In this document: positions 1,898 through 14,612 of the stretch, one piece after another | Layout: every line of letters starts with the position of its first letter | How positions within the stretch are numbered: position 1 is the stretch's first letter | DNA from: Escherichia coli | Lineage (GTDB): Bacteria; Pseudomonadota; Gammaproteobacteria; Enterobacterales; Enterobacteriaceae | Assembly: GCF_048403405.1 (NCBI RefSeq) | Contig: NZ_CP183129.1 | Direction: 5' to 3' (one strand) | Length of the DNA stretch: 64,000 bases | Position numbers and translations under genes: made by a program | Notes under the pieces: model-generated | The model's input: only the letters and a program-made list of their open reading frames with translations | Told to the model about the DNA's origin: nothing | The model's database searches: none

Positions 1898-3310
1898 TTA
1901 TTTCCGCAGTTCAGCAGCCCGCTTCTTACCAATAAACAACCAGCCCAGCCCCAGAGCGATAAACCACAGCGGGGTAACCAGCAGCGCCTGGCGGGTATCA
2001 TCTTCCAGTGTCAGCAGCACGACCACGAACACAAAGAATGCCATACATACCCAGCACATCAGCTTGCCGAGCGGCATCTTGTAGATTGATTTCTCATGCA
2101 AGTGCGGACGCTGTTTGCGATACACCAGGTACGAGCAAAGGATAATCGTCCAGACGAACATAAACAGAATCGCGGAAACGGTCGTGATCATCGTGAACGC
2201 ACCAATCACGCTGGGATTCACATACAGCATCACCACGCCGCCGAGCAGGCAGATGCAGGAGAAGGTCAGCCCTTTCGCGGGTACTGCGCGCTTAGAGAGT
2301 TTAGCGAACGCTTTCGGTGCCACACCTTCCTGCGCCAGACCAAACAGCATACGACTGGTAGAGAAGACGCCGCTGTTAGCGGAAGACGCCGCAGAGGTCA
2401 GCACCACAAAGTTGATCACGCTGGCAGCCGCAGGCAAACCTACCAACACAAACAGCTCAACGAACGGGCTTTTCTCCGGGACTACCGAACTCCACGGCGT
2501 CACGGACATAATCACAATCAGCGCGAAGACGTAGAACATAATGATACGGATCGGAATGGAGTTAATCGCGCGTGGCAGTGATTTCTCTGGATCTTTGGTT
2601 TCCGCAGCTGTTGTACCTACCAGCTCAATCCCTACGAAAGCGAAAACCGCTATCTGGAATCCGGCAAAGAAGCCACTTAAACCTTTCGGGAACCAGCCGC
2701 CATCATTCCACAAATGCGCGAATGACGCTTCCACACCGGTCGGTGACTGAAAGTGCATCGCCACCATGACCAGGCCGACGACAATCAGCGACACAATGGC
2801 GACGATTTTGATCATCGCAAACCAGAACTCCATCTCACCGAACATTTTCACGGTGGCGAGGTTGAGCGTCAGCAGCAGCACTATCACCGCCAGCGAGGCG
2901 ACCCAGTCGGAGAGCTCGGGGAACCAGAACTGAGCATAAGCCGTGATCGCCACCACGTCTGCCATACCGGTTACAACCCAGCAGAACCAGTAAGTCCAGC
3001 CGGTGAAATATCCTGCCCACGGCCCGAGTAAATCGGAAGCGAAGTCACTAAAAGATTTGTATTCCAGATTCGAAAGCAGCAATTCCCCCATTGCCCGCAT
3101 CACGAAAAAGAGCATAAAACCGATGATCATATAAACGAAAATGATCGACGGCCCGGCAAGGCTAATCGTTTTGCCGGACCCCATAAACAACCCCGTACCA
3201 ATGGCACCGCCAATGGCAATAAGCTGAATATGTCGGTTTGTGAGATTGCGCCGTAGCGACTGTTCAGCCGGAGCCTGATCATCGGCAACGACTTTTACCT
3301 GATCTACCAT
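1898..3310 (-). CDS. cycA: D-serine/D-alanine/glycine APC-family permease CycA
   Basis: ORF 1898..3310, 470 aa, 12-TM amino-acid permease; recognised as CycA. Confidence 0.93.
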   Translation of the reverse strand: MVDQVKVVADDQAPAEQSLRRNLTNRHIQLIAIGGAIGTGLFMGSGKTISLAGPSIIFVYMIIGFMLFFVMRAMGELLLSNLEYKSFSDFASDLLGPWAGYFTGWTYWFCWVVTGMADVVAITAYAQFWFPELSDWVASLAVIVLLLTLNLATVKMFGEMEFWFAMIKIVAIVSLIVVGLVMVAMHFQSPTGVEASFAHLWNDGGWFPKGLSGFFAGFQIAVFAFVGIELVGTTAAETKDPEKSLPRAINSIPIRIIMFYVFALIVIMSVTPWSSVVPEKSPFVELFVLVGLPAAASVINFVVLTSAASSANSGVFSTSRMLFGLAQEGVAPKAFAKLSKRAVPAKGLTFSCICLLGGVVMLYVNPSVIGAFTMITTVSAILFMFVWTIILCSYLVYRKQRPHLHEKSIYKMPLGKLMCWVCMAFFVFVVVLLTLEDDTRQALLVTPLWFIALGLGWLFIGKKRAAELRK

Positions 3311-4239: not shown

Positions 4240-4456
4240 CGTATTTCCTTTCTTAGGGTATAAAGTAGCGGGCAGCATATCAGCCACACTTCTTTGGGTA
4301 AAACTTTGTCGCGGGAATGATGACAAATCCCGGGGAAAAAGAAACAATAGCAATATCCCGTATGAATATAATAAAGGCGGGTTTACCACGGACATCATAG
4401 CGTTAGCTTATTCATAGGCTATGATTGAGGAACAAGACGCGGAGCAGGAGGAAACC

Positions 4457-5095
4457 ATGCCCGGGCGCTTTGAACTAAAACCAACCCTGGAGAAAGTCTG
4501 GCACGCGCCAGACAATTTTCGCTTCATGGACCCGCTGCCGCCGATGCATCGTCGGGGGATCATTATTGCCGCCATTGTATTGGTGGTCGGATTTCTGCTT
4601 CCATCTGATGATACGCCCAACGCGCCGGTGGTGACGCGTGAAGCGCAGTTAGATATTCAGTCGCAATCACAACCACCGACAGAAGAACAGCTGCGGGCGC
4701 AATTAGTCACGCCACAAAATGATCCTGATCAGGTGGCTCCGGTCGCTCCAGAACCAATACAGGAAGGCCAGCCAGAAGAGCAGCCGCAACCCCCCCAAAC
4801 GCAACCATTCCAGCCAGATAGCGGAATTGATAATCAATGGCGCTCTTACCGTGTCGAACCCGGTAAAACGATGGCACAGCTGTTCCGCGACCACGGGCTG
4901 CCCGCTACCGATGTCTATGCAATGGCGCAGGTAGAAGGCGCGGGTAAGCCGCTGAGTAATTTGCAAAACGGGCAGATGGTGAAAATCCGCCAGAACGCCA
5001 GCGGCGTGGTGACGGGCTTAACCATTGATACGGGGAATAATCAACAGGTCTTGTTTACCCGCCAGCCGGATGGCAGTTTTATTCGTGCGCGGTAG
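4457..5095 (+). CDS. ytfB: Cell-division-associated OapA/LysM-domain protein YtfB
   Basis: Track ORF starts 4421; ATG at 4457 is preceded by AGGAGGA (4446..4452); 212 aa with one TM helix, a Pro/Gln-rich linker and a C-terminal OapA-like domain. Confidence 0.85.
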
Positions 5096-5404
5096 ATGAA
5101 GGGTCAACCAAAAGCCAGCTAAGGATTGTCTCTTTGATGACCTTACGTCTGGCTTCCAGTGCCTGGGGGAAACCATACTGATATGATAAACCAGGCCAAG
5201 CGTATGCTGGTTGATCAAATAATATCCCCCAAGCGCAGCAATATTAATATACACCTGCAATGGGTCGATATCTGGCTTAAAAATATTGTGTTTCTTCCCT
5301 TCATCCAATAAGGATTCCATTAACTGCAAGTGCGCATGATTAATTTCTAAGAGACGCTGTGATTTTGCATAATGCACACCTTTACTTTGGTTTTCACTAT
5401 GCAC
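5018..5404 (-). pseudogene. ytfA: Decayed TetR-family regulator remnant (ytfA-like); only the C-terminal effector-domain-like part is encoded
   Basis: ORF 5018..5404, 128 aa; central segment resembles TetR C-terminal domains but no HTH N-terminus is encoded, and the frame runs 78 nt into the 3-prime end of ytfB. Confidence 0.45.
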
Positions 5405-5751
5405 AATTTTTAAAAACCTGGGATTAGCAATATAATAATTCCATGTAAAATCAATAATTTCTCAATGGCACTTGTGTCTGGTTAACCTGCTGATTAACGA
5501 ACTTACCGATACCGACAGCGTAGAATAATTACATACCGCACAACAAGAATGTATGGTGTAAGGCGTTGTCAGTCATCTCCCTCCCTGGGTGCATCGTTAT
5601 ATCCGTGATGAGCGATTTTTGATATTAATATCTTTTACTATCCGCTATTTTCACCACTTCAGAAAACAAACTTATTTTTATTAATATCAACTCTTTTTCT
5701 TTGAACATTCAACTGCGATATTTGTAAAAATATTAAACAGGCAACAATAAA

Positions 5752-6546
5752 ATGACATTACCAACCACTATTTATTCATTTCCTGCATATTCACCCCGTT
5801 TTTCGTCCACCGACAAACCAGTAAAATTAAAATTTCATCAATACGCACGCGCTACATTACTTTCAAATCGTGGAAGAGACCATAATTGCGATGGCAGACA
5901 TACTGTTGAGATCCACAAACTAGATCTCTCAGACTGGCAAGCATTCAATAAGTTAGCGACGAGGTGTAATACTTACGATGGAATAACAATGAATGGTGAT
6001 AATTCTTTTGGATGGAACCATGAAGCTACATTAGATAATATTCACGCCCAGAAATACAATAAAGCTTACGCGGGTGCGAGGTTAACCGCAGAACTGAAAT
6101 ATTTATTGCAAGATGTTGAATCCTTCGAACCCAACAGTAAATACACAATACACGAGGTTGTTTTGGGACCTGGTTATAGTACTCCAGACTATACCGGCCA
6201 AACGATAGGATACGTTGTAACCCTTCCTGCCCAAATGCCTAATTGCTGGTCATCTGAACTACCAACAATCGATCTTTATATCGACCAACTTCGCACTGTT
6301 ACAGGCGTTTCTAATGCCCTCGGATTCATCATTGCTGCATTGCTAAACGCGTATTCTGATTTACCCCATGATTTGAAAATTGGTCTGCGTTCCTTATCAA
6401 GTTCAGCAGCAATCTACTCGGGTTTGGGTTTCGAGCGAGTGCCGCAGGAGCGAGACATAAGGAGTGATCGTATGCATCTAACGCCAGCAAACCATCCTGA
6501 ATTATGGACACAAGAGAATGGTGAATGGATCTACTTGCGAAACTAA
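5752..6546 (+). CDS. yjfZ: Uncharacterized protein YjfZ (DUF2686 family)
   Basis: ORF 5752..6546, 264 aa, preceded by about 350 nt of very AT-rich sequence; recognised as YjfZ, function unknown. Confidence 0.8.
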   Translation: MTLPTTIYSFPAYSPRFSSTDKPVKLKFHQYARATLLSNRGRDHNCDGRHTVEIHKLDLSDWQAFNKLATRCNTYDGITMNGDNSFGWNHEATLDNIHAQKYNKAYAGARLTAELKYLLQDVESFEPNSKYTIHEVVLGPGYSTPDYTGQTIGYVVTLPAQMPNCWSSELPTIDLYIDQLRTVTGVSNALGFIIAALLNAYSDLPHDLKIGLRSLSSSAAIYSGLGFERVPQERDIRSDRMHLTPANHPELWTQENGEWIYLRN

Positions 6547-6568
6547 TACCTAACGAAAAATAGAAAGC

Positions 6569-6596
6569 AAAACGCCGACCAGTGGTCGGCGTTTTT
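6569..6596. terminator. Bidirectional intrinsic terminator between convergent yjfZ and rplI
   Basis: AAAACGCCGACC-AGTG-GTCGGCGTTTTT: 10-12 bp GC stem flanked by an A-run and a T-run, so it serves both strands. Confidence 0.65.
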
Positions 6597-6616
6597 ACGT
6601 CTCGTTGAATAACGAA

Positions 6617-7078
<462 letters not shown>

Positions 7079-11795: not shown

Positions 11796-13547
<1,752 letters not shown>

Positions 13548-14612
13548 ATGAGTAAAGTGAAAAGTATCACCCGTGAATCCTGGATCCTGAGCACTTTCCC
13601 GGAGTGGGGTAGCTGGCTGAATGAAGAAATTGAACAAGAGCAGGTCGCCCCTGGCACATTTGCGATGTGGTGGCTAGGCTGCACCGGGATCTGGCTGAAA
13701 TCAGAAGGTGGCACCAACGTTTGCGTTGATTTCTGGTGCGGCACTGGCAAACAAAGTCACGGTAACCCGTTAATGAAACAGGGTCACCAGATGCAGCGCA
13801 TGGCTGGCGTGAAAAAACTGCAGCCAAACCTGCGCACCACCCCGTTTGTTCTTGATCCGTTTGCGATTCGCCAGATCGACGCGGTACTGGCGACTCACGA
13901 TCACAACGATCATATCGACGTTAACGTCGCTGCTGCCGTGATGCAGAACTGTGCTGATGACGTACCGTTCATTGGACCGAAAACCTGCGTTGATTTGTGG
14001 ATTGGCTGGGGCGTACCGAAAGAGCGTTGCATCGTGGTCAAACCGGGCGATGTTGTAAAAGTGAAAGACATTGAAATTCATGCGCTTGACGCTTTCGACC
14101 GTACTGCACTGATCACCCTGCCTGCCGATCAAAAAGCGGCTGGCGTACTGCCAGATGGCATGGACGATCGCGCAGTAAACTACCTGTTCAAAACCCCTGG
14201 CGGTTCCCTGTATCACAGTGGCGATTCCCACTACTCTAACTATTATGCGAAGCACGGTAACGAACATCAGATCGATGTGGCGTTAGGATCGTACGGTGAG
14301 AACCCGCGCGGTATTACCGACAAAATGACCAGCGCCGATATGCTGCGTATGGGTGAAGCCCTGAATGCGAAAGTGGTTATCCCGTTCCACCACGACATCT
14401 GGTCAAACTTTCAGGCCGATCCGCAAGAAATCCGCGTGCTGTGGGAGATGAAAAAAGATCGTCTGAAGTATGGCTTCAAGCCGTTTATCTGGCAGGTGGG
14501 CGGCAAATTTACCTGGCCGTTGGATAAAGACAACTTCGAGTACCACTATCCGCGTGGTTTCGATGATTGCTTCACTATTGAACCGGATCTGCCGTTCAAG
14601 TCATTCCTGTAA
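13548..14612 (+). CDS. ulaG: L-ascorbate-6-phosphate lactonase UlaG (metallo-beta-lactamase fold)
   Basis: ATG at 13548 gives [10 protein letters not shown]..., 354 aa; HDHNDH metal-binding motif present. Confidence 0.9.

Follow-up and report, generated by a model that had tools for sequence, protein, structure and literature searches.

The ytfA gene (b4205) of Escherichia coli K-12 is recorded in RefSeq as a TetR/AcrR family gene that is 'incomplete; missing N-terminus' and has been treated as a pseudogene (preprint 10.64898/2025.12.20.695731). Its presence varies among E. coli strains, and it is also found in E. albertii and E. fergusonii (PMC6790063). The adjacent yjfZ has been put forward as a PCR marker specific to E. 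coli/Shigella (PMC11057252), and the yjfZ/ytfA spacer of K-12 was found by in-vitro genomic SELEX to carry an H-NS site and an RpoD-holoenzyme site (PMC3946193). We analysed the corresponding locus in a 64,000-nt stretch of an E. coli chromosome, hereafter the window, where the gene order is cycA-fklB-ytfB-remnant-yjfZ-rplI-rpsR-priB-rpsF with rplI to rpsF on the minus strand (Table 1). The closest complete genome is that of strain TUM14771 (99.9% identity over 4900-6700), and K-12 MG1655 is 96.5% identical to the window over the same interval.

K-12 ytfA occupies the same locus and bears the same two deletion scars as the window. It differs in that its longest ORF is of 108 aa, opens at an internal GTG and ends at the ancestral stop codon, and in that its second scar (junction 2) is of the alpha type, whereas the window has two extra 1-nt deletions, a 128-aa ORF ending at 5018 and a junction 2 of the beta type. 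The locus encoding the intact regulator WP_001299246.1 in other strains has the same position and the same convergent overlap with ytfB as the remnant; it differs by encoding both the TetR_N and TetR_C_29 domains and by having a promoter region, an operon and a transporter, whereas the window keeps an 85-nt relic alone. On these comparisons, the locus is very probably the deletion scar of a lost TetR-linked operon, with yjfZ as a separate insert.

Table 1. Coordinates of the ytfB-rplI interval and its flanking genes in the window
Feature	Position	Strand	Basis or remark
cycA	1898-3310	minus	
ytfB (cell division protein)	4457-5095	plus	RefSeq annotation of a 99.9%-identical locus (L001); ORF list
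128-aa ORF	5018-5404	minus	ORF list; GTG start, internal (Val of ...KIVHSENQ...)
tetR 3' remnant (ytfA)	5079-5478	minus	tblastn, alignments to intact alleles, Pfam
G5 run (G6 in all other alleles examined, including TUM14771)	5165-5169		Allele alignments
IS200/IS605-family (TnpB) insertion site, empty in the window	5185		
Junction 1, scar of the 541-bp deletion, now mutated	5474-5481		8-bp direct repeats GTGGCGGA
Reductase relic (SDR, annotated 3-ketoacyl-ACP reductase; first operon gene)	5482-5566 (85 nt)	plus	blastn, codon analysis
Junction 2, scar of the ~7.33-kb deletion	5560-5590		
yjfZ upstream region	5567-5751	plus	Common to strains keeping operon and yjfZ
yjfZ, DUF2686 orphan, 264 aa	5752-6546	plus	Pfam PF10887, 503.5 bits against a cut-off of 25, residues 5-264
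rplI terminator, perfect hairpin with 13-bp arms	6569-6595		Fixed right border of the cargo slot
rplI, right-flank core gene	6617-7066	minus	ORF list, annotation

The tetR remnant and its lesions

The first-pass annotation had described the 128-aa minus-strand ORF as encoding only a TetR-C-like domain without an HTH, and a Pfam search bore this out by returning TetR_C_29 as the sole match (E 1.4e-17, profile positions 27-106 of 119). The ORF is genuine and does not owe its existence to chance. No TetR_N (PF00440) or HTH match was obtained for this ORF in Pfam, whereas the intact allele of strain SC516 matched both TetR_N (E 1.9e-14) and TetR_C_29. Translation of the three minus-strand frames between 4990 and 5760 revealed no HTH segment, and re-examination of the frames of the window gave no intact regulator. 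The view that a regulator had decayed here was upheld by comparison with other genomes, in which an intact 215-aa TetR is encoded at the same position.

The intact TetR protein aligned to the window from residue ~83-89 through 215 across two frames, and the remnant as a whole corresponds to about codons 83-215 and the stop codon of the intact 215-aa TetR/AcrR gene. Downstream of ~5165, the 128-aa ORF is out of the ancestral frame, and the last part of the TetR C-terminal domain sits in a different frame from this ORF. The remnant has neither an HTH nor a start codon at its truncated end; the first 81-88 codons have been deleted together with the promoter region, and an in-frame stop is found upstream of the homologous region.

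In addition, the remnant in the window carries two 1-nt deletions, one near 5457 that is common to TUM14771 and one in the G-run at 5165-5169 that is private to the window. When the region 5140-5230 was compared with the 5,426 complete E. coli genomes that formed our population sample, the best full-length match did not exceed 98.9% identity. The missing G could be a real private deletion or a homopolymer sequencing error. ytfB and the tetR remnant are convergent, and the 3' end of the remnant overlaps ytfB. The 78-nt overlap reported earlier was confirmed, with the ORF extending from 5018 and ytfB ending at 5095, and was found to be secondary: because of the missing G, the ORF reads past the homologous stop at 5079-5081, and the ancestral tetR frame would overlap ytfB by 17 nt (stop at 5079).

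The remnant combines homology to part of a positionally equivalent intact gene with disabling lesions. Among the hallmarks of a functional TetR/AcrR regulator, the C-terminal domain is retained, and the HTH and an unbroken frame with start codon and promoter are missing. By these sequence features, ytfA is a TetR/AcrR pseudogene, the predicted nonfunctional tail of a repressor gene.

The intact locus and the two deletion scars

An intact gene for the 215-aa TetR/AcrR protein WP_001299246.1 adjoins ytfB in strains SC516, SFE8, 06-00048 and ATCC 25922. This gene is divergent, over a 212-bp spacer, from an operon of five enzymes and a transporter of either MFS or TRAP type, after which rplI follows. 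The enzymes are an SDR annotated as 3-ketoacyl-ACP reductase, a TIM-barrel protein resembling xylose isomerase, an enoyl-CoA hydratase, a fused CoA-transferase and a flavoprotein of 690 aa that resembles fumarate reductase; where the transporter is of the TRAP type, it has Q, M and P subunits. An intact TetR gene with the operon was also found beside ytfB in E. whittamii, E. albertii, Klebsiella spallanzanii and Entomohabitans teleogrylli, which indicates that the operon-bearing state is the older one. In E. whittamii, K. spallanzanii and Entomohabitans teleogrylli, where the contig reaches the far end of the locus, the MFS gene is followed by rplI with no yjfZ; the contig of E. albertii is shorter. 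The intact TetR gene was divergently paired with the operon at every E. coli and related-species locus examined, and from this conserved divergent arrangement within the Enterobacteriaceae we infer that TetR represses the operon. The distant TetR homologues of Alphaproteobacteria (34-40% identity) were mostly not located beside the operon and are thus uninformative on the regulon. The TetR hits on plasmids were set aside as chromosome fragments with ytfB adjacent, and not true plasmids.

Searched against NCBIfam, the operon enzymes hit generic models such as the PRK12745 reductase and no specific equivalog, and no PDB relative of the flavoprotein was found at E up to 1e-10. The literature, searched by the RefSeq protein accessions of the operon, returned nothing. 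The MFS protein falls within the D-galactonate/hexuronate (ACS) transporter group, and the TRAP binding protein encoded by the intact allele matched 4X8R, 4N8Y, 4N91, 4MHF and STM3169 of Salmonella with E values of 1e-60 to 1e-72. The closest solved relatives of this binding protein bind glucuronate or galacturonate (PMC11668362, PMC7660916). The likeness to hexuronate-type TRAP systems belongs to the intact allele and is absent from the window, and the enzymes of the known Uxu/Uxa hexuronate route differ from the CoA-transferase, enoyl-CoA hydratase and flavoprotein of the operon. At the level of a reasonable guess, the lost operon may have acted on a sugar-acid-like substrate via CoA thioesters.

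The distribution of these forms was monitored in the population sample. Essentially all of the 5,426 genomes matched the region 4900-6700 by megablast, and 2,227 of them contained the stretch in one piece. The segment deleted at junction 1, which comprises the intact 5' end of tetR and its promoter, was present in 3,153 genomes (58%), and yjfZ in 2,538 (47%). The MFS-type operon was found in 1,693 genomes, the TRAP-type operon in ~1,450-1,480, and an MFS gene contiguous with yjfZ in 288. Expressed as approximate shares, TRAP without yjfZ accounted for 27%, MFS without yjfZ for 26%, MFS with yjfZ for 5% and the truncated form with yjfZ for 41-42%.

Intact alleles have the octamer GTGGCGGA twice, at tetR codons 81-84 and at reductase codons 27-29, at a distance of 541 bp. 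The pair with this spacing was seen in loci L004 and L006, whereas L007 yielded no matching pair. The truncated alleles have one copy left, which has since mutated; the 541-bp deletion took away the part of tetR that encodes the HTH, all of the 212-bp divergent promoter region and the 5' end of the reductase gene. Junction 2 fuses what remains of the reductase gene to DNA that in strain 06-00048 lies 76-82 nt past the stop codon of the MFS gene, and the microhomology at this junction is of 4-7 bp (GCGT or TCCCTGC) with copies ~7.33 kb apart. Short direct repeats at both breakpoints and one copy at the junction are the pattern of a microhomology deletion, and the junction copies have since mutated. 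Gradual erosion of a yjfZ regulator does not agree with these scars, which point to loss by deletions of 541 bp and ~7.33 kb at short direct repeats.

The relic enclosed by the two junctions corresponds to about codons 30-58 of the reductase gene and is ~81% identical to intact alleles; blastn of window positions 5482-5587 against the reductase gene gave 78-82% identity. It contains two in-frame stops, of which a TAA is common to the window, K-12 and Escherichia sp. E1V33 and the second is common to the window and K-12. Its pN/pS was 0.6-1.2, as compared with 0.03-0.29 between intact reductase genes.

The tetR remnant gave lower ratios, with a dN/dS of 0.10-0.25 in remnant-intact and remnant-remnant comparisons alike, and these values would suit an HTH-less YtfA fragment that is still made and selected in some lineages, as a ligand-binding or a TetR-dimer-poisoning protein. 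The alignments showed no indels in the remnants of K-12 and E1V33, and expression changes upon ytfA CRISPRi have been reported (preprint 10.64898/2025.12.20.695731). However, polarity on the convergent and overlapping ytfB may account for the CRISPRi results, the remnant offers no start codon at its truncated end apart from such internal GTG codons as the one used by the K-12 ORF, and in the window it is broken by two frameshifts. Furthermore, an IS element interrupts the remnant in ~77% of its carriers, a 1.75-kb IS200/IS605-family element being found at the 5185 site in ~1,750 other truncated-form genomes. The dS of the remnant to the intact SC516 allele is 0.044, as low as that of the flanking core genes; its DNA is 97.5-98.8% identical to the 3' 60% of this allele, the fklB and ytfB flanks are equally so, and the divergence from intact alleles jumps exactly at junction 1. 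The low dS and the flank-like identity, set against the 81% of the relic, argue for recent recombination and not for long-term constraint. A selected YtfA fragment is therefore considered very improbable. The simplest reading of the low dN/dS is that recombination with operon-bearing strains may have refreshed the ytfB-proximal part of the remnant, DNA that would thus have belonged to a working gene until recently, while the relic between the two junctions could not have been refreshed by recombination with intact alleles.

Junction 2 was found in two forms, both of them common. The alpha form, present in K-12, O157:H7 and Escherichia sp. E1V33, breaks at TCCCTGC (reductase codon 65), and the beta form, present in the window, TUM14771 and DETEC-P649, breaks at GCGT (codon 58). 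Beta keeps ~25 nt more of the post-MFS sequence and alpha keeps reductase sequence absent from beta, so that neither is a simple derivative of the other. This could mean that the truncated form arose more than once, if an intermediate with the 541-bp deletion had persisted and the dead operon had been removed independently to give alpha and beta. On the other hand, no genome with junction 1 alone was seen among the loci inspected, and at either end the two breakpoints are no more than ~25 nt from one another, which fits one event in an imperfect 30-nt repeat with alternative resolution of the heteroduplex, or a later conversion. The shared substitutions in the relic group K-12 (alpha) with the window (beta) and not with E1V33 (alpha). 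A repeated origin is considered rather unlikely, though conceivable. In Escherichia sp. E1V33, both scars are present and the yjfZ upstream region continues to window position 5714, but the yjfZ ORF is missing; the deletion haplotype is therefore old and has undergone further decay in E1V33.

yjfZ and the variable cargo slot

The gene yjfZ lies in a slot between the transporter terminator and the rplI hairpin, the borders of which are constant among strains. The slot is empty in AHM9C68I, contains a hipBA-like module in ATCC 25922 and GPEC1035, and holds a ~1-kb yjfZ module in all truncated strains and in 06-00048, where yjfZ is situated between the MFS gene and rplI. The ~1-kb module is not flanked by mobility genes or repeats. 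The rplI hairpin was the sole standout of the promoter and terminator scan, in which promoter-like sites were not enriched over shuffles (5 vs 4.7), and Rfam, searched with the interval 4800-6800 (E up to 1), returned just two sub-threshold chance matches near the rplI terminator.

The presence of YjfZ relatives was searched exhaustively with HMMER in 1.84 billion representative proteins, giving 21 matches that were mostly fragments; a word-indexed search gave 6. The nearest full-length relative is from E. albertii with 43% identity, and the distribution of yjfZ is patchy and restricted to Escherichia. DUF2686 was the only Pfam match of YjfZ at E up to 10, and when its profile was compared with the sequences in the PDB, nothing came up beyond ribosomal protein uS12 at chance level (E 0.78). 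The AlphaFold model, built from a shallow alignment, had a mean pLDDT of 35 and was unusable. A GNAT-like look of the C-terminal half of YjfZ was considered and dropped, as no tool backed the idea.

Base composition set the interval apart from its flanks, as the first-pass annotation had held. The islet 5096-6560 has a GC content of 39.6% against a window mean of 51.7%, and a GC content as low as this was found in just 0.16% of windows of equal size. The identification of an AT-rich yjfZ of the DUF2686 family next to the remnant also stands, its GC content being 41.9% and its GC3 35.5%. The ~350 nt of AT-rich non-coding DNA described between the two was correct in extent and composition (347 nt at 5405-5751, GC content of 33.1%); its description as non-coding DNA needs amending, since it is partly tetR- and reductase-derived. 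The stretch from 5405 to ~5478 comes from tetR and 5482-5566 from the reductase gene. As judged from these alignments, about half of the ~350-nt spacer is pseudogene debris, and the native yjfZ upstream region is confined to the remaining part (Table 1). Within this upstream region, the segment 5588-5751 has a GC content of 28%, and a motif containing ATTAATATC is present in two copies at 5616-5632 and 5672-5688. The H-NS site found by SELEX in K-12 agrees with this 28%-GC region.

The two genes had been taken together as one old acquired cassette whose regulator decayed. On such a reading, the TetR-like protein would once have been a dedicated regulator of yjfZ and would then have decayed in place. 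It draws on the adjacency, divergent orientation and AT-richness of ytfA and yjfZ, and the intact tetR gene itself has a GC content of 39-40%. The reading is contradicted by the arrangement in other strains. In the 288 genomes that have both genes, the intact tetR and yjfZ are separated by six genes, ~7.9 kb and a terminator; tetR and the operon occur without yjfZ in roughly 2,900 of the 5,426 E. coli genomes and in related species; and the yjfZ slot is empty or has other cargo in other strains. The present adjacency of ytfA and yjfZ was created by the ~7.33-kb deletion, and the intact tetR is paired with the operon, as also reflected in the counts of tetR 5' ends, of yjfZ and of MFS-contiguous yjfZ given above. 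A single cassette is thus regarded as highly improbable, and yjfZ appears, from its position and distribution, to be independent cargo unrelated to tetR and the operon.

The AT-richness of the islet and the patchy distribution of yjfZ, which is found in 47% of the complete genomes, are those of H-NS-silenced xenogeneic DNA. The likeness to the H-NS-bound AT-rich orphan genes of E. coli is one of composition (low GC), distribution (patchy and Escherichia-restricted) and an in-vitro site (the SELEX H-NS site in the K-12 spacer), and no mobility genes or repeats flank the yjfZ module. The yjfZ upstream region, which abuts the scar, is probably bound and silenced by H-NS, as the first-pass annotation had suggested, the support for this being at the level of in-vitro binding in K-12.

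Proposed history of the locus and its meaning

The earlier state of the locus would have comprised ytfB, a convergent and slightly overlapping tetR of 215 aa, the 212-bp promoter region, the operon, the transporter, an optional slot and the rplI terminator. In this arrangement, TetR would have repressed the operon in response to a substrate or intermediate of the sugar-acid type. The ancestor of the truncated form is proposed to be of the MFS plus yjfZ type, the direction of change being deduced from sequence logic and not from a dated tree. The scars show that a 541-bp deletion between the 8-bp repeats took out the HTH half of tetR along with the promoter region and the beginning of the reductase gene, and that a further deletion of ~7.33 kb at a microhomology of 4-7 bp took away what was left of the operon, up to a point just short of yjfZ. 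The tail of tetR was kept because its end overlaps ytfB.

The pseudogene status of ytfA is already known, and the course of the deletions, the reductase relic and the separate nature of yjfZ are added detail and no new kind of biology. The proposed PCR marker yjfZ is absent from 53% of complete genomes. For annotation, these results suggest that in K-12-type strains ytfA is a scar left by the loss of an operon; it does not regulate yjfZ and ought to be left out of lists of transcription factors. Furthermore, ~58% of complete E. coli genomes keep an uncharacterised and putatively TetR-controlled operon, probably for CoA-dependent catabolism of a sugar-acid-type substrate, which is lacking in K-12 and may merit study.

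Divergent alleles and the operon in other genera

The ytfB-tetR region of strain SFE8 shares an identity of only 76.7% with the corresponding stretch of the window, in contrast to rplI, which is 99.8% identical between the two. SFE8 thus has an allele here that is either very deeply diverged or introgressed. Among 5,426 complete E. coli genomes, a megablast match to the window interval 5140–5230 was absent in approximately 435, and these genomes may carry SFE8-like divergent alleles. In Klebsiella spallanzanii, the TetR protein and the operon enzymes are 80–91% identical to those of E. coli, whereas YtfB, which is encoded next to tetR and the operon, is only 64.5% identical. This identity gap between YtfB and the operon reflects either fast evolution of ytfB or transfer of the operon between genera at the same site.

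The yjfZ upstream region, its protein and its slot

The region upstream of yjfZ contains a ATTAATATC-containing motif twice, with a spacing of 56 nt, and copy 1 is the perfect palindrome GATATTAATATC. Both copies are retained in K-12 and 06-00048. The paired motif could be an operator or simply a reflection of AT-rich sequence. Another AT-rich dip in the window (34–36% GC) is expected, from synteny with two comparison loci (L003 and L006), to correspond to the promoter region between the divergent genes ulaG and ulaA, and an “HNS” mark is also given for this promoter region in PMC3946193.

Coordinates of the features in the window and in comparison loci
Feature	Locus	Position
YtfB/operon identity contrast	L015, Klebsiella spallanzanii	
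TetR gene and operon next to ytfB	L017, Entomohabitans teleogrylli	
SFE8 ytfB-tetR region	L007	1483–2809
Stretch compared with SFE8	window	4400–5470
hipBA-like pair	L008	3921–5684
hipBA-like pair	L010	3916–5677
Equivalent slot	window	5567–6560
ATTAATATC-containing motif copies	window	5616–5632 and 5672–5688
Inverted pair of the motif	window	5619–5630/5679–5690
IS1-broken TRAP binding-protein gene, SC516	L005	10382–11959
IS1 copy, AHM9C68I	L009	1662–2359
Second AT-rich dip	window	~13200–13650

The N-terminal residues 21–66 of YjfZ gave a weak profile match to residues ~52–96 of the ribosomal protein uS12 (E 0.78), which is chance-level and is remarked only because yjfZ adjoins the ribosomal-protein operon. 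The yjfZ gene, at 5752–6546 of the window, has been put forward as a qPCR marker specific to E. coli/Shigella (PMC11057252). It is missing from 2,888 of the 5,426 complete genomes, and therefore such an assay would overlook many strains. ATCC 25922 and GPEC1035 have a hipBA-like toxin–antitoxin pair, rather than yjfZ, in the slot that separates the MFS gene from the rplI terminator, and the HipA-like gene is annotated as frameshifted.

IS1 insertions in the operon

In SC516, the TRAP binding-protein gene is broken by IS1 copies, and in AHM9C68I an IS1 copy sits between the flavoprotein and MFS genes. Thus, disruption of the operon is ongoing also in strains counted as “intact.”
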